From the NCBI GenBank assembly GCA_963765675.1, contig CAVXXK010000006.1:1-64000 (forward strand): 64,000 bases of DNA. The letters are read 5' to 3'. Under the pieces are notes generated by a model. The model was not told where the DNA came from. It made no database searches and saw only the letters and a list, made by a program, of their open reading frames with translations. Shown here piece by piece: positions 21,938 to 50,106 of this stretch. Every line of letters begins with the position of its first letter. The stretch's first letter is position 1. The stretch comes from an uncultured delta proteobacterium. GTDB taxonomy: Bacteria > Desulfobacterota > Binatia > Binatales > Binataceae. The translations under genes were made by a program, and so were the position numbers.

Positions 21938-22342
21938 TTAGAATCCGCCCATCAGGGGGACGTTCGGGAATGAGTAATTCGTGAAACCGTCCGCGTAATA
22001 GTAATAAGGATACGGCTGATACTGATACGCCGAGTCGCCGTAATACGCGGGATTCGGATCGCATCGGTATCCGTCCTTGTCGCAATACATCAGCGGACCG
22101 TCTTCACCCTTGAGCAATCGCTGCGCACGCGCCTCGATGCTCGCCGATTGCGCAGGAGGTATCGCCGGCGCGTCTGAACCATAGGCGAAGTGATGAGGCT
22201 CAAGACTCGACGCGTAGGCCTGTACCGACTCTGCGTTGCTCGGGTTTTGCGCGAACGCGATAGCTGGAAAGGATAACGCGGCAATCGCGCAGATACCGAC
22301 GACCGCGCCTAACATTCGTTTGAAGATTGTTGAGGGTAACAT
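21938..22342 (-). CDS. Hypothetical secreted protein with Tyr/Pro-rich C-terminus
   Basis: GGAGG RBS, signal peptide ending AFA, YCDKDGYRC and YYYY tail. Confidence 0.6.
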   Translation of the reverse strand: MLPSTIFKRMLGAVVGICAIAALSFPAIAFAQNPSNAESVQAYASSLEPHHFAYGSDAPAIPPAQSASIEARAQRLLKGEDGPLMYCDKDGYRCDPNPAYYGDSAYQYQPYPYYYYADGFTNYSFPNVPLMGGF

Positions 22343-22376
22343 CGCGAATACCTCCATGAGGTCCGTAACCAAGAGG

Positions 22377-22392
22377 AGCATCGCACGTGCCA
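22377..22392 (-). promoter_or_regulatory. sigma54 promoter for the secreted hypothetical protein
   Basis: Minus strand TGGCACGTGCGATGCT. Confidence 0.65.
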
Positions 22393-22521: not shown

Positions 22522-24597
22522 CTAGTGCTGGAATGCGCCGAGATCGACCGGACTCGCGGGACGTACTGTTCCCATGATGTCGGTTGACGGCACACCGTAG
22601 GCGGTCGTGCCCGCGCCGATCGCGGGGCTTGCCGTCTGCAGCATGAAACTGATTGCCGGATTTACCAGCATCGGATTTTTTCCGGAGAGCTCAGCAGTTA
22701 TCGTGTCGCTCGTACTCGAGATCGACGCTGAGGAATCTCCGCTGGTACCGTCGAAGGTCAGGTTGTTCGCAAACGTATTGTCCGAGCCGCCCCCGTCGAG
22801 AATCGCGGTGTTGGAACTGTTCAAGCTTGGTGCAGCGACCAGCACGTTGTTGGCTATCGTGTTTGCGTTGGAGTTTTCCAGCGAGACCTCGCCGCGCCAG
22901 GTGTAGGTATTGGTCGTCGTGGCGTAGTCATCCCAGCAGGTGTTATTGAGGACCGTGACCGCGGTCGAATCGTACACTTTGACGCAGGCCCCAGTGTTCC
23001 CGTAACCCACGTTGTTCTCGACCAAAACCGCTGCGCTGTAACCGGTCGCGATGCCGCTGTCGATAATGATCCCGTTACCGTCGGTCCCGCCCTGCGGATT
23101 CAGGTTTGAGTATGAGTAGTTGTTCGCTACCGTAATGTGGTAGCCCGCCGCGCTGTCCGCCTGCATCGGTTCATAAACGGAGATTCCCGAGCCCGAGCCA
23201 GACCAGGTCGAGGCGTTTCCCGAGACGATATTGTGTTCGATGTCGATGTAGTCGCTGTTATTGACCTGGATTCCGCTGGCGGCGGCGCTGGTGACTTCGT
23301 TGCCGGTCAATTTCAAGTGCGCGCCGCCGCCCGAAGTGACGATTCCCCACATTCCCCCGGTTATCTCGAGATTCTCGACTGCGATGTAGGACTGCCCGTT
23401 GATATTCACCCCCATCGCGCTGGTGCCGCTCATGCTGATCGTGGCGCCGAGCGCGGTCGGAGCCGCCAGCGTGATCCATCCATTCGCGGTTCCCGAGTTG
23501 TTGAAGGTTACGCCCGTCGTGTAGGTGCCGGTTGCGCAGACCGTGTCGCCGGGATTCGCCGCGTCAACACCCTCTTGCAAGGTTAGGAAAGGCTTCGACG
23601 AACTGCCTGGCCCCGAATTGCTTCCCGATGGTGACACGTAGAGGGTACATGCGATCGAGGAGGTTGGTGTCGCGGTGGGCGATGCCGTGCCGGTCGGAGT
23701 TGCCGTTATCGTAGGTGTCGCGGTCCTTGTTGGAGTAGCTGTCCTGGTCGGCGTCGGAGTCGCGGTCCGAGTTGGAGTGGACGTTGTCGTGGCCGTCGGC
23801 GTAGCGGTCGTGGTCGGAGTTGGTGTAGCCGTCGCGGTTACCGCGATTGTGGGGGTTGCTGACACTGTCGGAGTCGCGGTTGCGGTTTGAGTTGAAGTCG
23901 CTGTTGCCGTCGAGGTCGCGGTCGGCGTTGCCTTTTTGGTCCGAGTTGCAGTTGCCGTCGCGGTCACGGTCGGCGTCGTGGTCGCTACGGCGGTCGGCGT
24001 TGCGGTCGCGGTAAATGTGGCGGTTGCCGTTTGAATCGGAGTCGGCGTGGATATCGGACTTGTCGTCGACGTGGGGAATGGTGTGGGGGTTTGCCGTGAT
24101 GTCGGTCCCCGCGGATCCAGGTTTCTAACTCGGCCGAACAACGGTACCGACACAGTCGGATTGGTCGCGTCGCTGAAGATCGTTAGCGTTCCTTGGTGCG
24201 TTCCGGTCGGACTCGCGGTAAAGGCAATGCTGACAATGCATCGGTCGCCCGGCTCCAATTGCCCCACGCAGGTGCTCGACGGAACAAATTCCGGGTTTGA
24301 AGATGTCAGGTTGGAAATTGTAATGGGCTGATTCTGACGGCGCGTTTTCCGATTGTGGAGAGTGACCCTTCCGGATTTGCGCTCGACCACCGCGCCTAGC
24401 TTGACGACCTCGGTTGCGGACTTGACTACCTGCGGTGAGACCTCGAGCGCTGCCGGCTCGACGTCTGAAGCGATCTGCGGCTGACTCTCGGCCGGATATT
24501 GTCCAGCGTATGAATTGGTGACTGCGAACAGCGCGGCAACGGTGGCGAGCAACGCGACGAGGACGGCAAGAACACTGCGGTTAAACTGAAAACCCAT
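22522..24597 (-). CDS. Secreted protein: Ig-like (ASH/choice-of-anchor D) domain, Thr-Pro linker, right-handed beta-helix (pectin-lyase-like) domain
   Basis: [23 protein letters not shown]; long T/P/A linker; [17 protein letters not shown]; DGNGIIID; [11 protein letters not shown]...DLGAFQ. Confidence 0.8.
23660..24100 (-). repeat. Low-complexity Thr-Ala-Thr-Pro coding repeats
   Basis: TATPT units repeated in translation. Confidence 0.85.
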
Positions 24598-25188
24598 CTC
24601 TTCCGCTTGAGGCGGCCCCTATTCCGCGTTCGTAGTTCGCGCGGCTGTCTTGCTACAAAAAGTAGCAGAATTGCTGCGCCATCAGTGGGAGAGCGAGTTT
24701 CGTGCCGGATTGTATTCATCTTTTGTCTACAACTTGTGTCATTTTGAGGTTGTCTCTGAGACAATTTTTTCCACTATCTGTAGCAAAACTGCGACGTTCA
24801 GCGCCGAGTTGGCGGCGCTGCTCCGCCCGCTGCGTCATCGCTTGTCCCACTCCGCGCCCAAGCCAGGCACCCCTGCGATTACGCGCGCGTCCAGCCTCCG
24901 TACGCCTGCTGAACAGTGATTTGTGTGTCAGAGCCGGTCCGTGAAAGGGCTCGCGCCTCGAAAACCGGTCCACCATCGCTCACTTGGATGTTCACATTCT
25001 GAATATGCTAAAAAAGAAGGAGTGGACTGATTAGCCCGTGACCTGTTTTGCATTGTCATGTTAAGCGGGGGTTTGCTATGTTGCGTCCACGTTAGTTCGA
25101 TTGACGACCATCAGTCCCCGGTCCTCGATGGTCGGGGGACTGCTGATTGCGATTTGTAATGTTCTGGAAGTTTGCAATGGAGACCACG

Positions 25189-25473
25189 ATGGATCAGGGC
25201 AATTCTCAGGCGCATGACTATCTGATTATCAACCGCGTCCAGTTATTGAGCGAATGCGGATGCAGCGCGTGCGGCGGCGGTTTCAGTCAAAGCCCGACGG
25301 GCGACAAGGCTCTCGTCGTCACGGTCGGCGAGGGCGGCAAGAGCTTCATATTCTGCGGCGGATGCGGCGACAATATCATGGGGCGAATCTCCTCCGACGA
25401 CGTGCGTAAGCATTACGTCTGGGATTGGGCGATCCCGCTCAGGAACGGGCGTCCCGCAACCCAGAGTTCCTGA
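25189..25473 (+). CDS. Hypothetical 4-Cys (zinc-ribbon-like) protein A
   Basis: GGAG RBS before ATG 25189; CSAC...CGGC...NIM...YVWDW. Confidence 0.7.
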   Translation: MDQGNSQAHDYLIINRVQLLSECGCSACGGGFSQSPTGDKALVVTVGEGGKSFIFCGGCGDNIMGRISSDDVRKHYVWDWAIPLRNGRPATQSS

Positions 25474-25497
25474 GCGCGCACCTCCGCGGCTGCCGCG

Positions 25498-26064
25498 ATG
25501 GACTCGATGAAGGGATGGCTCTCGATTGCTCCCATGGCGGGCGCGATCGCACGAGTTTCCCGGCGTGGCCGCTATTCTTGCTATCTGCTCGAACATGGGC
25601 TGGAACTTGCCGAGCCGTGCTGCGCTGCGTGCGGAATCGCATTTGATTCGCCGCGAGTCGTGGGCGAGCGTTTTCCCGTTGCGCTCCAGGTCTTCGACGC
25701 GCGCATCGGTGGCGAGGTTGCGCCTTCGACCCGGATGTTCGTCGGCGCCAAGGTGCTGATCTCGCGCGCGGGAGCGTCGCTCGCGCCGCTGCTCGATCGT
25801 TCGGTCACCTACGTCGGGGCCAGGGTGATGGTCGTGCTGGTGCGCTTCCGCCCCGGCCGCTATCTGCCGATCCTCCTGTGCCGCGCATGCGGCCATAACG
25901 TCATGGCGCATCTGCGCGAGGATAGTGAGGCGAGCTACACCTGGGATTGGATAGTGGAATTCCGGCCGCGCAAGATCCTCTCGCGGCTGAGCGGCCGTCT
26001 CGGATTGCGACCCTCCGTTAGCTTTCCGAAACTGCAGATGCGCGCGATAGCGGCCGCGCATTGA
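25498..26064 (+). CDS. Hypothetical 4-Cys protein B, paralog of A with internal insertion
   Basis: CAAC...CRAC...NVM...YTWDW aligns with protein A. Confidence 0.7.
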   Translation: MDSMKGWLSIAPMAGAIARVSRRGRYSCYLLEHGLELAEPCCAACGIAFDSPRVVGERFPVALQVFDARIGGEVAPSTRMFVGAKVLISRAGASLAPLLDRSVTYVGARVMVVLVRFRPGRYLPILLCRACGHNVMAHLREDSEASYTWDWIVEFRPRKILSRLSGRLGLRPSVSFPKLQMRAIAAAH

Positions 26065-26355
26065 ACGTCTCGAAGCCGCCGTGCGAATTCTCAGTAGCGG
26101 CGTCAATCCACCGATTCATGCGCGCGCTTTTTTCGTAGGCGCCGCCGCCGCCCTGACGCGGTGTCGGCCGTTTAATCCGGCCCGCGAATCTGCCGCAATC
26201 AAGAGTTATTCCCCGAGGTAAGGACTTTTGACATTTCGCGATGGCCGGACTACTAGTTGCCATCCGGTCAGTCCGGAAGTAGCGATGGCGGATCTGCAGT
26301 CGCGGGCAGGGAGGCCAAATAAACAAAGTTCTCTGAAAAGAGAACGGAGGTTCTT

Positions 26356-27666
26356 ATGCTCGTGGGGACTCGTACGTGGGGAACTGCACTCCTGAGCGCC
26401 GCGGCCTCGGTGATGCTCGCGACGATGGTGGCCGCTCCGGCAGCCGCTCAGGTCAAACCAGGTGATTACATCACCGCGGACCAGGCGGCCAAGGTCCGAA
26501 ATCTCGTCTCGCCGGGTGTGCTCTACAAGGTCGATCATGGGATGACGATGAAGATCGTTCCGACCGAGCGGATCGACTGGCCGCCGCCTTACAAAGACGC
26601 GACCGAGAAATACTCGGCCCAGGTCGATCTGTCGGCCGATCATCGCTCGCTGGTCGGCTACGTGGCGGGGCAGCCGTTCCCGCTGATCGACGCGAACGAT
26701 CCGTACGTCGCGACCAAGATCGCGTGGAACAACGTGTTCCGTCCGATCAACAGCGACGATTACGATCTGCGCTATTTCGATTGCGACACGGTTTATACCG
26801 GGCTCAACAAACCGTTCTTCGAAATCGCGTACGGACAGCTCGGCCACTACGCGGGCTACGATGAAGTCGGACGCACCGAAGTCGAGCCGCTGCCGACCGA
26901 CCCGGACTTCAAGAAGACCGGACGGCTGTGGCTGTTCTACCTCGGACCAGAACTCGCTCCGGTGGACGCGCGCGGCACCAGCCTTTTGCGCTGGCGCTAT
27001 GCGGACCCAAATCACGGCGACGACACGTGGACTTGGGAGACAGGATCTCGCCGCGTGCGTCGCTTGAACGAAGCGATCAACTCCTCGGCGACGGGATCGC
27101 AAACCTTCGATCCGGATCATTATTCAGGCTTCAATCCCAAGACCGAGGAATACGACTACAAGTTCATCGGAGAGAAGCAGATGCTCGCGTGCGTGCGCGC
27201 GGAGCATTCGCCCGAAGTGCGCTGCCCGACCGACGGTGGCGGAAGCGCGTGCCCCGAGGTCTGGGAGATGCGGCACATGTACGTGATCGAAGCGCTGCCG
27301 CGGAAAGTCAACAACTCCGGCGCACTGGATTCCCGCACCGTCATCTACGAAGACTCGGAAATGTGGTTCCAGCCGTATATCGATACCTATGACCGCGCGG
27401 GTCAGTTGTGGCGCAACCATATCTACTGGTCGGCGTTCCGTGATCGTCCGGTCCCCGATGCGAGGGTCGCGATTTATCCGTATAAACGCGAGTTCGTGGT
27501 CGGTGCGGCCTCGACCGACGTGCAATCCTCGATGGTGACGATGTGTTACCTGCCCGGAATGGAAACGCCGGAGCGCGAATGCTGGTACATCAACATGGGC
27601 GCAGTGGACAAGAGCTTCTTCACCCAGGAAGCGATGGTGAAAGCCGCAGTCAGCGGAGGCCGTTAA
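26356..27666 (+). CDS. DUF1329 domain secreted protein
   Basis: Signal peptide; VKPGDYIT, GYVAGQPFP, DDTWTW...RRVRRL, YDRAGQLWR and FTQEAM. Confidence 0.85.
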   Translation: MLVGTRTWGTALLSAAASVMLATMVAAPAAAQVKPGDYITADQAAKVRNLVSPGVLYKVDHGMTMKIVPTERIDWPPPYKDATEKYSAQVDLSADHRSLVGYVAGQPFPLIDANDPYVATKIAWNNVFRPINSDDYDLRYFDCDTVYTGLNKPFFEIAYGQLGHYAGYDEVGRTEVEPLPTDPDFKKTGRLWLFYLGPELAPVDARGTSLLRWRYADPNHGDDTWTWETGSRRVRRLNEAINSSATGSQTFDPDHYSGFNPKTEEYDYKFIGEKQMLACVRAEHSPEVRCPTDGGGSACPEVWEMRHMYVIEALPRKVNNSGALDSRTVIYEDSEMWFQPYIDTYDRAGQLWRNHIYWSAFRDRPVPDARVAIYPYKREFVVGAASTDVQSSMVTMCYLPGMETPERECWYINMGAVDKSFFTQEAMVKAAVSGGR

Positions 27667-27698
27667 GCGTTACCGCAACTCTCCCAAGGCCTGACTCG

Positions 27699-27740
27699 AA
27701 ACCGGCGGGATCACCTCGATCCCGCCGGTTTTATTTTTTT
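27699..27740 (+). terminator. Intrinsic terminator after DUF1329 copy 1
   Basis: AAACCGGCGGGATC-loop-GATCCCGCCGGTTTT followed by a T-run. Confidence 0.85.
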
Positions 27741-27758
27741 CGGATCGGCACTGGCTGT

Positions 27759-27995
27759 GTCATTCCCGCGCGTGGCTGCCGCGTGAGAGCCTGTCCTGCG
27801 CAACGCCGAAGGAAGTCCCGAACGATAAGCCGCCGCACGAGGTGAGGACTCGGCGCACGGCCGCTCGGGATTTCTCCCGGAGCTTGCCCTGAGCGACGTC
27901 AAAGGGGTCGAAATGACGGATGTGGGCTCGGTGCATGAGTATCGTAATCCCAGCCGAACCCTCATTCGTCATTTCGAGCGCTGCGCGAGAAATCC
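27759..27995 (+). repeat. Composite palindromic intergenic repeat (GTCATT...AATGAC family), copy 1
   Basis: Homologous to 29815-29971 and, inverted, to 36373-36591. Confidence 0.8.
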
Positions 27996-28390
27996 GGAGG
28001 CGGCCATGCTCATCGCAAACACTGCAGAGACGGGATCTCTTCAGAGCCGTCATATGCTGGGCGCCGATACTCGATATGATTAGCTCTGACCATCGAAGAA
28101 GCTGCGGATCATCTCGCATTCCGCTTTCGCGAATTAAAGGTCAGCAGCTCCGCAGAATAGGAACCACTTTGTATGGTTCCTTGCGGCGGCTATCTGTCGT
28201 TTAGTCTCTGGACAAATTCGTAAATTACCGACATTGTGTCAGAAGGGCGTAGTGAATTCTTTTGACACGATTCGGGTGCGGTACTTTTAGTGCAACGTCA
28301 CGCCGGAGCATCTTCCGGATACTCGCCGATCTGCAGTCGCGGGCAGAGACGCCTATTGAACAAGTTCTCTGGTAGGGGAACGGAGGTTTT

Positions 28391-29724
28391 TATGCGTTTG
28401 TGTACTCGCTTGTGGGAAAACAAGATCCTGAGCGTGGCGACGTCGCTGATACTGACCGCGATGGTGGCTGCGCCGGCAGCGGCGCAGGTCAAACCGGGTG
28501 ATGTCGTTACCGCCGCCAACGCGTCGGTGGTGCGCAACCTGGTTTCGCCGGGAGTTTATGCGCGCGTGCAGATGGGCATGCGAATGGATATCGTTCCGAC
28601 CGGCCGTATCGATTGGCCGCCGCCGTACAAAGACGCGACTGAGAAGTACGCGTCGCAGGTCACGCTCAGCAAGGATCATCGCACAATGATTGGATACGTG
28701 GCGGGGCAGCCATTTCCGCTGCTCGATCCGAACGATCCGGATGTCGCGACCAAGAGCAGTCTGGAACAACGTGTTCCGGCCGATCCAGAGCGATGACTAC
28801 GATCTGCGGTTCTTCGATTGCCAGAACCATATACCCGAAACTTGGCGGCACCGCAGCGCGTGATCGACGACGTCTAGGTCGGCCATTATGCGGGTTACAG
28901 CCTGGTGGGCCGCACCGAGGTCGAGCCGCTGCCGACTGATCCTGATTTCAAGGTCACCGGACGCCTGTGGATGTTCGCGCTTGTATCCGGTGCTGGCGCC
29001 GGCCGACGGAACGCGGCACCGGCCTCATCCGGTATCGCTACGCCAATCCGAACCAGCGGCGACGATTCCTGGACCTGGACAGACGGGAGCCCGCCGCGTT
29101 CGCCGTCTCGAATGAATCGCTCTTGAGCTCGACAACACTGGCACTGGCAGCCTTCGATCCGGATCACTACTCGGGCTACAACCCGAAGACCGAACAGTAC
29201 AACTACAAGTTGCTCGGTGAGCAGGAGATGCTCGCGTGCGTGCACGCCAAGAATTCGCCCGAAGTGACCTGCCCGTCCGACGCGCGGCTCGTCGGCCTGT
29301 CCTGAGGACTGGGAGATGCGCCACATCTATGTAGTCGAGGCGACCCCGCGCAGAGGCGTCGTTCAATCGACCAACGTTCTGGAAAGCCGCAACGTGGTTT
29401 ATCTCGACGCCGAAGTGTGGTTCCAGCCGTACGTCGATGAGTACGATCAGCAAGGGCGAGCTGTGTCCGCACCAATCTCTACTGGCTCGGCCTATCGCGA
29501 TCGTCCGGTCCCGGACGCGCGGGTCGCGATCTATCCGTTCAAGCGCGAGTTCGTCGTCGGCGCGAGCGTCGCTTGACGTGCAAGGCGGCCATTGCGACGA
29601 TGTGCTATCTGCCCGGCCAGCACACGCCCGAGCGCGAATGCTGGTACATCAACATGGGCGCGGTGGACAAGGATTTCTGCACCGTGCGCTCGATGGTGAA
29701 AGCGCAGTCAGCGGCGGCCGATAA
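28391..29724 (+). pseudogene. DUF1329 paralog, disrupted
   Basis: Colinear with copy 1 but split across frames by many indels; in-frame TAG near 28875 (DV*VGHYAGY versus GQLGHYAGY). Confidence 0.7.
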
Positions 29725-29756
29725 GCGTTAACGCAACGCGCCCAAGATCTGACTCG

Positions 29757-29797
29757 AAACCGGCGGGATCATCCGATCCCGACGGTTTTCTTTTTTT
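29757..29797 (+). terminator. Intrinsic terminator after DUF1329 copy 2
   Basis: Near-identical to 27699-27740. Confidence 0.8.
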
Positions 29798-29814
29798 CGG
29801 ATCGGCACTGGTGT

Positions 29815-29971
29815 GTCATTCCCGCGCGTGCCGCGCGCGAGAGCCTGTCCTGAGCAACGCCGAAGGAAGTCCCGAACGATAAGCCGCCGCACGAGGTGAG
29901 GACTCGGCGCACGGCCGCTCGGGATTTCTCTCGGAGCTTGCCCTGAGCGATGTCGAAGGGGTCGAAATGAC
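29815..29971 (+). repeat. Composite palindromic repeat, copy 2
   Basis: Near-identical to 27759-27918. Confidence 0.8.
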
Positions 29972-30011
29972 GGATGTCAAGTTCTCTGGTAGGCGATCGC
30001 GCCTGTTCTTC

Positions 30012-46098: not shown

Positions 46099-47292
<1,194 letters not shown>

Positions 47293-48174: not shown

Positions 48175-50106
48175 TCAGTTGCTCTCCGCCTCGGTTCGTT
48201 CTTGAGTTACACTCGCCGGGGCTGGCTCCTTGGTCTCGGCGGCCGGCTCCTCAGCCGGTGCGGTCTTCATAGTGAAACCCGGCAGCCCCTTTGAAGGCAC
48301 GCCGACGCGTGATCTCGCGCGCTGCAACGCGTAGCGCCTGACGGTGCGGCGCGCCTGTTCCAGCGTTGCGCTGACTTCGAAGCATCCTGCGGCGAGAAGC
48401 TCTGCGATATGGCCATTGGCGGCGCCGCCGCCGGCCAGGATTATCTGGTTGGGCAGCGCGGACTTGATCGACCGGACCAGGTCGAGCGTTGCCGGGATGC
48501 ACTCCGTGCAGGTGCATGAAATACAAATGATATTGGGAAAAAAGCGCTTGGCGAATTCCTCGATCTCGGCGGCGCTCTTTCCGTCGCCCAGAAAAGTCGC
48601 GGCAACCCCGTCCTGGCGCAGGAGCTCCAAAAGAATCTTCAACCCCAACGTATGAAGCTCGCCGGGAGCGCATACGCCCACCACCCGGAGCGGCGGAATC
48701 AGAAGCGGGCGATTGAATCGGCTGCCGAGCTCTCCCACCAGGCCTTCGGTGGTATCGACAATGAATTTCTGATTCTCGGGGCTGATATGATCGTCGGAAC
48801 GCTCCTGCTCCATCAGGGCCAGTGCTGGAAGGATTACGTCGTTAAGAGTGGGTTCGAGGCCGTTTTCGTCGCAATATTCCACCACCAGGGCGCGCGCTCC
48901 GTCGCGATCGATCTCGAGGAGCTTGCGGTAGTAGTCGTGATAGTCCTCGAGCTTCCGGTCCGCGCCGAGCAGGACGGTCAGAAAACTCAGTGCGGGAATA
49001 TAGTCGCCCGCCACCTTCAGGCAGGAGGTCAGAGGTGTTGCCAGGAGCAGACCCGGCAGCCCCCACAGCCACGCCCAGAACATCGCCGAGACCAGCAACG
49101 CCAACGGAGAGAGGCCAATTCCACGTCCGATCAGAAAAGGCTCGACGAACTGCGACGCCACCTGGTCGAGAATCACGAACGCCGCAAATACTTCGAGGCA
49201 CTGGGACCATCCTGGAAAAACGGCGAACGCGACCACGGTCGGCAATACCGCGGAAGTCAACGCGCCGACGTAAGGGATAAACCGCAGCAGAAAGGCCAGC
49301 GCCCCCCAGAAGGCAGGATTAGGCAGTCCGAGCAGCCACATCACGATTCCGATCGAGACGCCGTATCCGAAATTAACCAGTGAGAAGAGCAGCAGGTACT
49401 GAGAAACGGTGCTGCCTGCAGTCGCTATCGCCTCCGCGGCGAGGGTGACGCGAATCCTGGCGGTAAGGCGTACGAGACGATCGCGCACGTCTTCGCGCCC
49501 ATAGAGCAGAAAAAAGAACAAGACGATTACGAGCAGGACTTGGGCGAGTCCGGACAGCAACGGAAGGATCGGCTTCAGCACCTGCTCGGCGGCCGACGAC
49601 TCAGCGGGTGCCTGAACCACGGTTTGGGTTTTCTTATGTTCCGGCTTCGCCTGCTGAAGCCGCCGCTCGACGTTCTTTACGCCGTACTCGATACTTGCCA
49701 GCCAGTCCGGCGTAGCTCCTTGAAGCGAATTGATCTTGGCCGCGATATTTTCCGAGTGGTCGGTTACGTTCACCGCAACCGCGGTGAGTTGGACCGCCAG
49801 AAAATAGGCCAATACCGCGATCGCGATTATCGCGGTAGCGACGACCAGGGCGGAGCTGGCGAATCTGCCGATAAAACGCTCGAGGCGAGTCGCGATCGGG
49901 CTGAAGATCACCGACAACACGCCCGCCATCGCAAGCGGCATCAGCACGTCTTTCGCAAAATAGAGGACCGCCGTGGCGATGATGATGCCGAGCAGGGGAG
50001 TTGCCGCTCCCGATGAGGACGCCGTCGCCGGCGAGGACGAAAAGGATTCACCCGCCTCGCCGGACGGGGGCGGGAGCGGCGGGGTGGTTTCGTCCATCGG
50101 TGGCAT
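48175..50106 (-). CDS. AI-2E family transporter with C-terminal cobalamin-binding-like domain
   Basis: LRFIPYVG, VEPFLIG..GLSP, WGLPGLLLATPLT; C-terminal PGELHTLG..FLG..ILAGG. Confidence 0.85.
   Translation of the reverse strand: MPPMDETTPPLPPPSGEAGESFSSSPATASSSGAATPLLGIIIATAVLYFAKDVLMPLAMAGVLSVIFSPIATRLERFIGRFASSALVVATAIIAIAVLAYFLAVQLTAVAVNVTDHSENIAAKINSLQGATPDWLASIEYGVKNVERRLQQAKPEHKKTQTVVQAPAESSAAEQVLKPILPLLSGLAQVLLVIVLFFFLLYGREDVRDRLVRLTARIRVTLAAEAIATAGSTVSQYLLLFSLVNFGYGVSIGIVMWLLGLPNPAFWGALAFLLRFIPYVGALTSAVLPTVVAFAVFPGWSQCLEVFAAFVILDQVASQFVEPFLIGRGIGLSPLALLVSAMFWAWLWGLPGLLLATPLTSCLKVAGDYIPALSFLTVLLGADRKLEDYHDYYRKLLEIDRDGARALVVEYCDENGLEPTLNDVILPALALMEQERSDDHISPENQKFIVDTTEGLVGELGSRFNRPLLIPPLRVVGVCAPGELHTLGLKILLELLRQDGVAATFLGDGKSAAEIEEFAKRFFPNIICISCTCTECIPATLDLVRSIKSALPNQIILAGGGAANGHIAELLAAGCFEVSATLEQARRTVRRYALQRARSRVGVPSKGLPGFTMKTAPAEEPAAETKEPAPASVTQERTEAESN

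Follow-up and report, generated by a model that had tools for sequence, protein, structure and literature searches.

A pair of paralogous four-cysteine proteins from part of the Binataceae, tentatively read as a regulatory module

The question raised by this locus is what two small, adjacent and mutually similar genes might do in an uncultured bacterium, when neither of them matches a described protein family. The window analysed here is the whole stretch of 64,000 nucleotides (nt) at positions 1 to 64,000 of contig CAVXXK010000006.1 (assembly GCA_963765675.1), from an uncultured delta proteobacterium of the family Binataceae, and the two genes, which we call A and B, occupy a little less than one kilobase of it. 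An earlier note, made from the sequence alone, had described them as a two-gene operon of unrecognised four-cysteine (Cys4) proteins sharing a Y-x-W-D-W motif, and had interpreted them as a new zinc-binding fold that acts as a heterodimer or as a regulator and its antagonist, with conserved aromatics that would form a putative ligand or nucleic-acid site. The observation is confirmed by our analysis and the interpretation is partly supported. On their sequences A and B are paralogues, and they belong to an unnamed family, absent from the described families searched, whose chemistry is probably ordinary; what is unusual about this family is the pairing of an acidic with a basic paralogue. The reading that we favour, with a probability of roughly one in three, is that A and B make up a self-contained pair with a regulatory role, the basic protein B serving as effector and A as the partner of B. 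We infer metal binding, heteromer formation and a regulatory role alike.

Two paralogous genes and their shared motifs

Both genes are read from the same strand, and 24 nt separate the stop codon of A from the start of B:

25159-25473, + strand: gene A, a Cys4 protein of 104 amino acids (aa) from ATG 25159, with alternative starts at 25177 and 25189; isoelectric point (pI) about 5.5
25498-26064, + strand: gene B, 188 aa, a Cys4 paralogue of A; pI 10.1

The peptides that had been quoted for A and B are all present in these translations. GC content at codon positions 1/2/3 is 0.53/0.51/0.76 in A and 0.67/0.52/0.75 in B, and the third-position values resemble those of neighbouring genes with Pfam domains. 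An antisense open reading frame (ORF) of 287 aa (25243-26106, - strand) spans both genes and has the mirror pattern, 0.75/0.56/0.63; because its GC excess falls at codon position 1 and not at position 3, we regard it as a high-GC artefact, and the + strand is the coding strand for A and B. Differences from relatives of the same genus, counted at codon positions 1/2/3, are 6/4/23, 1/0/9, 3/4/19, 4/1/21 and 6/3/19 for A, and 15/7/31, 18/13/49 and 23/15/46 for B (the B comparison with locus L006 was dropped, as it was out of register). Since the changes fall mostly at third positions, both A and B are genes under purifying selection.

The start of gene A is corrected here. It had been placed at ATG 25189 (MDQ), which is in frame with A and has GGAG six bases upstream. 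However, the motif RTGTTYTGG, which encodes Met/Val-Phe-Trp, is present ahead of 32 out of 55 A-type genes; 30 of these have it in frame, at a distance to the stop codon that changes by multiples of three, and the two that do not are truncated. Because this motif is in frame among A-type genes, we place the start at ATG 25159 (MFWKF), which most likely gives the protein of 104 aa.

That A and B are homologous to each other, as had been proposed, is borne out by several comparisons. BLASTP aligns them with an E-value of 3e-7 over 52 C-terminal residues (31% identity), and hhalign aligns the A-family with the B-family alignment at 93% probability (E 2.4e-7, 35 columns). A profile of A, searched against the 4.5-Mb genome of origin, retrieves B at E 1.3e-4 and no other match, and the A and B profiles each match ORFs of the other family across 20 loci. 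Both local alignments are confined to the C-terminal half; homology of the N-terminal CxxC is based on a joint MAFFT alignment and on weak second-domain matches of the hidden Markov models (domain E 0.01-0.5). In the joint alignment, which comprises 18 diverse members, C29, C32, C60, C63, Y80, W82 and D83 are invariant (A numbering from METT), so that the four cysteines and Y-x-W-D are kept in 18/18. The features shared by the two proteins, together with those found in B only, are as follows:

25261-25272, + strand: first CxxC(G) knuckle of A, C-S-A-C; invariant in 17/17 A-family and 18/18 A and B sequences
25354-25365, + strand: second CxxC(G) knuckle of A, C-G-G-C followed by G-D-N-I; C60, C63, G64, D65, N66 and I67 invariant in the A family
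25414-25428, + strand: Y-V-W-D-W motif of A; Y80, W82, D83 and W84 invariant in the A family, the first three of these also when B is included
25621-25632, + strand: first CxxC knuckle of B, C-A-A-C; C42 and C45 invariant in 19/19
25666-25821 (approximate limits), + strand: insert of about 55 residues, placed between the knuckles and peculiar to B; no A-type sequence of the joint alignment has it
25879-25890, + strand: second CxxC knuckle of B, C-R-A-C; C128 and C131 invariant
25936-25950, + strand: Y-T-W-D-W motif of B; Y147, W149 and D150 invariant, W151 in at least 90%
25963-26061, + strand: Arg/Lys-rich C-terminal tail of B; R or K at 8 of 33 residues

Taken family by family, all four cysteines are invariant in 17/17 A and 19/19 B sequences, as well as in the mixed set. 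Each knuckle of A continues into a glycine (C-S-A-C-G and C-G-G-C-G), and in B the corresponding G46 is invariant in the first B alignment and G132 is found in at least 90% of sequences. The members can thus be recognised by a diagnostic series of CxxC(G), then CxxCG-[DE]-N-I, then Y-x-W-D-W. With 27 residues separating the Cys pairs of A and 82 those of B, the insert of B is 55 residues long, at the lower end of the 55 to 60 that had been estimated; its conserved positions in the B-family alignment are F59, G83, V86, S102 and G107. B also has Arg-rich termini. Its basic tail, likewise noticed earlier, holds an invariant P157 and a nearly invariant R158, the remainder being variable in both sequence and length. 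With the gene starts used in the alignments, on which these values rest, pI is below 7 in 15/17 A sequences and 9.9-11.3 in 19/19 B sequences, and the net charge of B-family members is +10 to +18 in 19/19. In broad terms, A lies at pI 5-6.5 and B at 10-11.

Distribution, linkage and a possible complex

All relatives of A and B found so far are confined to part of the Binataceae. Word-based searches returned nine homologues of A (56-99% identity) and ten of B (61-100%), and the only organism names given were those of 'Candidatus Binataceae' metagenome-assembled genomes (MAGs). When the B profile was run with HMMER against 1.84 billion representative proteins, 48 matched at E <=0.001, and the family comprises about 48 clusters at 50% identity; one of the matches, a 662-aa C2H2 multi-zinc-finger protein with E 9.5e-7, is unrelated, and we treated its match as resemblance at the level of the knuckle rather than kinship. 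Among 185,579 species genomes there are 34 loci, all in genomes titled as Binataceae or as deltaproteobacterial MAGs (uncultured delta proteobacterium or Deltaproteobacteria bacterium). Within the family, for which the counts include the unpublished genome G158, A is present in 31/165 genomes and 8/30 genera, and B in 21/165 by strong matches, three further weak matches being A-type genes. No match at E up to 1e-8 was obtained in any of 400 other genomes sampled across the phylum.

Copy number varies between genera: there is one pair per genome in the genus of the window, there are two to four A-type genes in other genera, and one genus has up to seven A-type genes and no B. In one genome (locus L052, also L032, 1900-7650), three A-type and two long B-type genes lie within 6 kb. 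The long B proteins of this locus (308 and 321 aa) carry an additional conserved C-terminal domain of about 80 residues, which has no Pfam match and is also seen in metagenome relatives of 289-377 aa.

The order of the two genes is kept widely, in agreement with the synteny that the earlier note had suggested looking for. Of the 35 loci with an A-type gene, 25 have B downstream of A in the same orientation (seen directly in 22, with A placed by a tblastn match in three more), and A stands alone in the other 10; the arrangement recurs in 19/20 loci of the set collected with the B profile, and the order is conserved over at least seven genera. Every genome with a strong B match also carries A (21/21), and 10 genomes of one genus have A only. 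Among the loci examined none has B without a nearby A, although in a single case the closest A is encoded on the opposite strand. Where a genus has two pairs per genome, the copies linked to a histidine kinase are grouped in a starred clade by the A tree and the B tree alike (100/99 in each), and B copies linked to a sigma-54 activator form another (97/98). Since kinase-linked and activator-linked copies separate in both trees, the pairs were duplicated whole and have stayed together.

Structure prediction of the complex points weakly in the same direction. ESMFold2 gave A-B a median score of 0.42 (runs 0.50, 0.42 and 0.00), the best of three controls scoring 0.00, and its verdict was 'weak support'; contact agreement between runs was at least 0%, and the confidence of the partners (pLDDT) at least 62. 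In calibration, the mark was reached by 116/157 solved complexes and by 2/215 mismatched pairs, and scores of 0.60 or lower comprised 18/157 solved complexes and both of the mismatches that passed, such that at this level a passing score is wrong in the majority of cases unless the pairing was already likely. The proposed heterodimer is favoured by a model score above its control, by the co-duplication of the pairs and by the lack of any B without A nearby, and is opposed by the run at 0.00; a heteromer of A and B is weakly supported.

These data also bear on the possibility that the two paralogues act independently as general small metal-binding proteins, form no heteromer and owe their adjacency to tandem duplication; for example, B could be a basic nucleic-acid chaperone or a nucleoid- or ribosome-associated protein, and A a separate interaction module. 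The occurrence of A without B, in 10/35 loci and throughout the 10 A-only genomes, would fit this, as would the fusion of A-type domains to unrelated domains (see below), the weakness of the complex prediction, and the fact that the weak matches, by fold and by sequence, are to zinc ribbons of the ribosome and of RNA polymerase. However, no B was found without a nearby A, the pairs have duplicated and diverged as units, and the 24-nt gap with its order preserved across genera argues for co-expression. We consider independent action somewhat unlikely.

Our data favour a module of two paralogous Cys4 genes that is complete in itself and restricted to part of the Binataceae. In the regulatory reading, both products would be small metal-binding proteins with a knuckle of zinc-ribbon or rubredoxin type, descended from one gene by duplication. 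A would be the ancestral form, able to exist alone, and B a derived partner that gained the insert and the Arg-rich ends. Basic B may then act as an effector on a polyanionic target, which could be nucleic acid or the acidic surface of a signalling or transcription factor, and A, which is mildly acidic, would modulate B by binding it with the second knuckle and the Y-x-W-D-W segment that the two proteins share.

Relation to known families and folds

The statement that A and B belong to no recognised family held up, in that searches of Pfam, NCBIfam and PADLOC, and of the Protein Data Bank (PDB) by sequence, all stayed below threshold. Neither protein matches a Pfam or NCBIfam model above its cut-off, the best sub-threshold matches being Zn_ribbon_Nudix (13.9 bits, cut-off 25.6) and GFA (14 bits, cut-off 24.3). 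When 18 members were scanned singly, the zinc-ribbon matches were again all sub-threshold, with Zn_ribbon_Nudix found in 7/18 (best E 0.0028). The best PDB matches by sequence have E 0.054 for A and 1.1 for B, all of them generic zinc fingers, and look-alikes in the ESM Atlas (scores 0.93 for A, 0.85 for B) are unnamed small proteins that point to no family. No account of the A/B family was found in the literature on Binatota zinc ribbons or on Binataceae, as far as titles and the opening parts of abstracts reveal.

The claim of a new zinc-binding fold did not hold up in the same way. AlphaFold2 models have a mean pLDDT of 53 for A (from a 17-sequence alignment) and 40 for B (19 sequences), with strands flanking the second knuckle. 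Foldseek of the A model against the PDB yielded no match at E up to 0.001, and in VIA-align no chain among 48,161 reached a Z of 5, the highest value being 3.2; the non-significant fold matches comprise TFIIS, Rpb9, ribosomal zinc ribbons and the zinc domain of the aspartate transcarbamoylase regulatory chain. Because the models are poor, these fold searches are uninformative on fold novelty. The Cys pattern and the sub-threshold Pfam matches suggest instead that the core of A and B is probably an ordinary zinc-ribbon or rubredoxin-type knuckle.

Several known systems resemble the pair in part. Generic C4 zinc ribbons (Zn_ribbon_Nudix PF14803, Zn_ribbon_3 PF13248 and the TFIIS/Rpb9 type) share two CxxC knuckles, set beside beta strands as the low-confidence models predict for the second one, but A and B fall below every gathering score of these families, which in turn lack the invariant G-D-N-I of A, the Y-x-W-D-W segment and the A/B pairing. 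MqsA, the YgiT-type zinc-ribbon antitoxin, is likewise a small Cys4 zinc ribbon in a two-gene module and was met by Foldseek at a non-significant E of 3.0; A and B differ from it in having no significant similarity and no helix-turn-helix (HTH) domain, and in being paired with a paralogue instead of an RNase toxin.

A further parallel is rubredoxin, a small protein in which two CxxCG knuckles lie about 27-29 residues apart and are accompanied by conserved aromatics. A shares the spacing, the small size and the aromatics, which raises the possibility that A and B are redox or metal-centre proteins, either Fe(Cys)4 electron carriers of rubredoxin type or Zn-thiolate switches responding to oxidants or metal, with the aromatics packed round the metal site. 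Both knuckles being CxxCG and 27 residues apart in A would be consistent with such a role, as would the position of stand-alone A genes beside flavin amine oxidases, luciferase-like monooxygenases and glutathione transferases. Rubredoxin Pfam models, however, gave no match at E up to 10 with A and B or at E up to 1 with the 18 members, the nearest related match being PknG_rubred in a single member of the 18 (E 0.076). The pI of 10-11 and the 55-residue insert of B are unlike soluble electron carriers, and neither a cognate reductase or hydroxylase nor any other redox partner gene is among the conserved neighbours. On balance, a redox or metal-centre role of this sort seems unlikely.

The charge asymmetry of two small, tightly linked genes with a promoter-like site of their own (see below), together with a patchy distribution over 8/30 genera and several copies in some genomes, could also be read as a toxin-antitoxin-like or defence module in which small acidic A neutralises basic B. 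Yet no PADLOC family was matched at E up to 1 by the four members searched, no toxin or antitoxin Pfam family is matched by A/B members, and the position of the pair is stable within the genus, with no mobile-element genes seen nearby. Moreover, A and B are homologous to each other, which is to our knowledge atypical of toxin-antitoxin partners. This explanation strikes us as very improbable.

Neighbouring genes and the case for regulation

Outside the genus of the window, A and B are found at several loci beside signalling genes. A sigma-54 activator without sensor domain, its AAA+ domain beginning at about residue 45, lies directly upstream of A-B in 6/35 loci, all from two related genera. 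A membrane hybrid histidine kinase follows A-B in four loci; in the three that are intact, the kinase gene overlaps the end of B or is separated from it by 1 nt. A divergent Ser/Thr kinase is found at two loci. Downstream of stand-alone A, at least four loci encode a small HTH_17 protein together with an amine oxidase, and one protein joins an A domain to a partial PadR domain. Other neighbours are an MFS transporter (three loci) and a glutathione transferase (GST), and those of stand-alone A also include gamma-glutamyltranspeptidase and Ser/Thr kinases. A-type domains are fused, in addition, to alpha/beta-hydrolase and to extra zinc ribbons. The signalling neighbours, taken together, suggest a role in regulation.

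At the fourth kinase locus (L058, 6348-7700), which lies at the end of a contig, one ORF of 450 aa covers a B-type gene and continues into the N-terminal membrane region of the kinase. This ORF is either a real fusion or an assembly frameshift; a similar protein of 378 aa exists in the representative library. An A/B-like domain in the N-terminus of the histidine kinase was considered and rejected, as the BLAST link was due to this ORF. The hydrolase fusions comprise an ORF at locus L067 (5050-6243) and three similar ones from the same genus, which encode a PGAP1-like alpha/beta-hydrolase with a C-terminal A-type domain (366-408 aa, four genomes).

Small partner proteins are known to control sensor-less sigma-54 activators, as PspA does PspF and HrpV does HrpS, and an activator beside A-B would need control in trans because it has no sensor domain of its own. 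The pair might therefore be a trans-acting anti-activator or co-activator of such proteins, and its adjacency to them in six loci of two genera is the main likeness to these systems. The window holds an activator of the same build (46099-47292, - strand; AAA+ from residue 47, terminal HTH_8, no N-terminal sensor domain) that is 60% identical to those directly upstream of A-B in two other genera, and a conserved sigma-54-like site (24692-24707, described below) is found on the opposite strand, 350 nt away from the promoter-like site of A. Against this, A and B have no sequence relation to the PspA or HrpV families, the pair of the window is 20 kb from its activator, the adjacency is limited to related genera, A-B pairs also lie beside kinases, MFS transporters and GST genes, and the activator subfamily is widespread, most of the genomes that carry it having neither A nor B. 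The comparison thus describes a possible way of working and not family membership, and as the specific function of the pair we find it distinctly unlikely.

In the window itself the surroundings are of another kind. Upstream of A-B, on the other strand, is a gene (22522-24597, - strand) whose product of 691 aa is a secreted beta-helix protein with a linker rich in Thr and Pro; downstream is a DUF1329 gene (26356-27666), then a second copy with a broken reading frame, and the arrangement of beta-helix gene, A-B and DUF1329 is kept within the genus. Between A and the beta-helix gene, and ahead of A, we find the following:

25053-25082, + strand: sigma-70-type promoter-like site upstream of A (TTGTCA, 18 nt, TATGTT, with TG before the second hexamer); putative function
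25113-25141, + strand: hairpin in the presumed 5' leader of A, predicted by RNAalifold with six pairs from six same-genus sequences, a small sample

A consensus scan for sigma-70-type sites found one where 0.5 was expected. The GTTTGCTATGTTG block of the promoter-like site is kept in 7/8 same-genus loci, and a similar TTGTCGC...GTTTGCTA block occurs in 4/5 loci of two other genera. Three of the six predicted hairpin pairs have compensatory changes on both sides; a search of 24400-26500 against Rfam returned no match at E up to 1. A sigma-54 promoter upstream of A was tried and rejected: a loose TGG-N9-TGC occurs in 4/35 upstream regions, and the two good instances belong to one locus.

Two sigma-54-like -24/-12 sites lie further upstream. 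One (CGGCACGAAACTCGCT, 24692-24707, - strand) precedes the divergent beta-helix gene and is kept in 6/8 same-genus loci; the other (TGGCACGTGCGATGCT, 22377-22392, - strand) is at the annotated start of a 147-aa gene (21938-22381) and recurs in a relative. Over the whole window such sites are at chance level, with 21 found and 22.7 expected. A second copy of the activator lies just beyond the window, at contig positions 71214-72260. Elsewhere in the window, a 643-aa protein (48175-50106, - strand) joins an AI-2E-family transporter to a B12-binding domain; an AI-2E transporter is also found near a cluster of A-type genes in another genus (locus L034).

The DUF1329 gene and its flanks form a tandem duplication of about 2.04 kb within 26288-30000, the copies being 73-97% identical. 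The first gene copy is intact (436 aa), and the second (28290-28796, 28967-29305, 29316-29576 and 29573-29731) is either a pseudogene or an assembly error, because it is split over several frames; a genome of the same genus has two intact copies of 436 and 438 aa. The 144-nt non-coding stretches after each copy (27780-27923 and 29834-29977) are 97% identical, and the coding parts 73-87%. Beside the first stretch is a 29-nt inverted repeat (27903-27982).

Several of these observations weigh against a regulatory pair. The neighbours in the window, a secreted beta-helix protein and DUF1329, are not regulators, and A-type domains fused to alpha/beta-hydrolase or placed beside GST, gamma-glutamyltranspeptidase and amine oxidase genes fit a general interaction or metal module as well as they fit a regulator. 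The activator subfamily is present in 131/165 genomes of the family and A in 31/165, and the two therefore do not co-occur. As the signalling neighbours are confined to few related genera, they represent few independent events, and sigma-54-like sites near the pair outside the genus of the window are not enriched, numbering 5 in 212 kb, compared with 5-15 in shuffled sequence. A genomic GC of about 60% would account for part of the high Arg content of B, one complex run out of three scored 0.00, and the AlphaFold2 models of both proteins are poor. It is with these points in mind that we hold the regulatory pair at the tentative level given at the outset.

A more specific version of the regulatory pair, which we offer as a doubtful extension, would make it a two-protein switch: the Cys4 metal site would sense redox or metal status, acidic A and basic B would change partners in response, and in doing so would gate sensor-less sigma-54 activators, hybrid kinases and small HTH regulators, with the A domain serving as a portable input module of Binataceae signalling.

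A family otherwise annotated as 'hypothetical' is now defined, with motifs by which its members can be diagnosed. If the pair is regulatory, it would be a lineage-specific input module in the signalling of the Binataceae, which are abundant uncultured soil bacteria, and could explain how signals reach their sensor-less sigma-54 activators and kinases.

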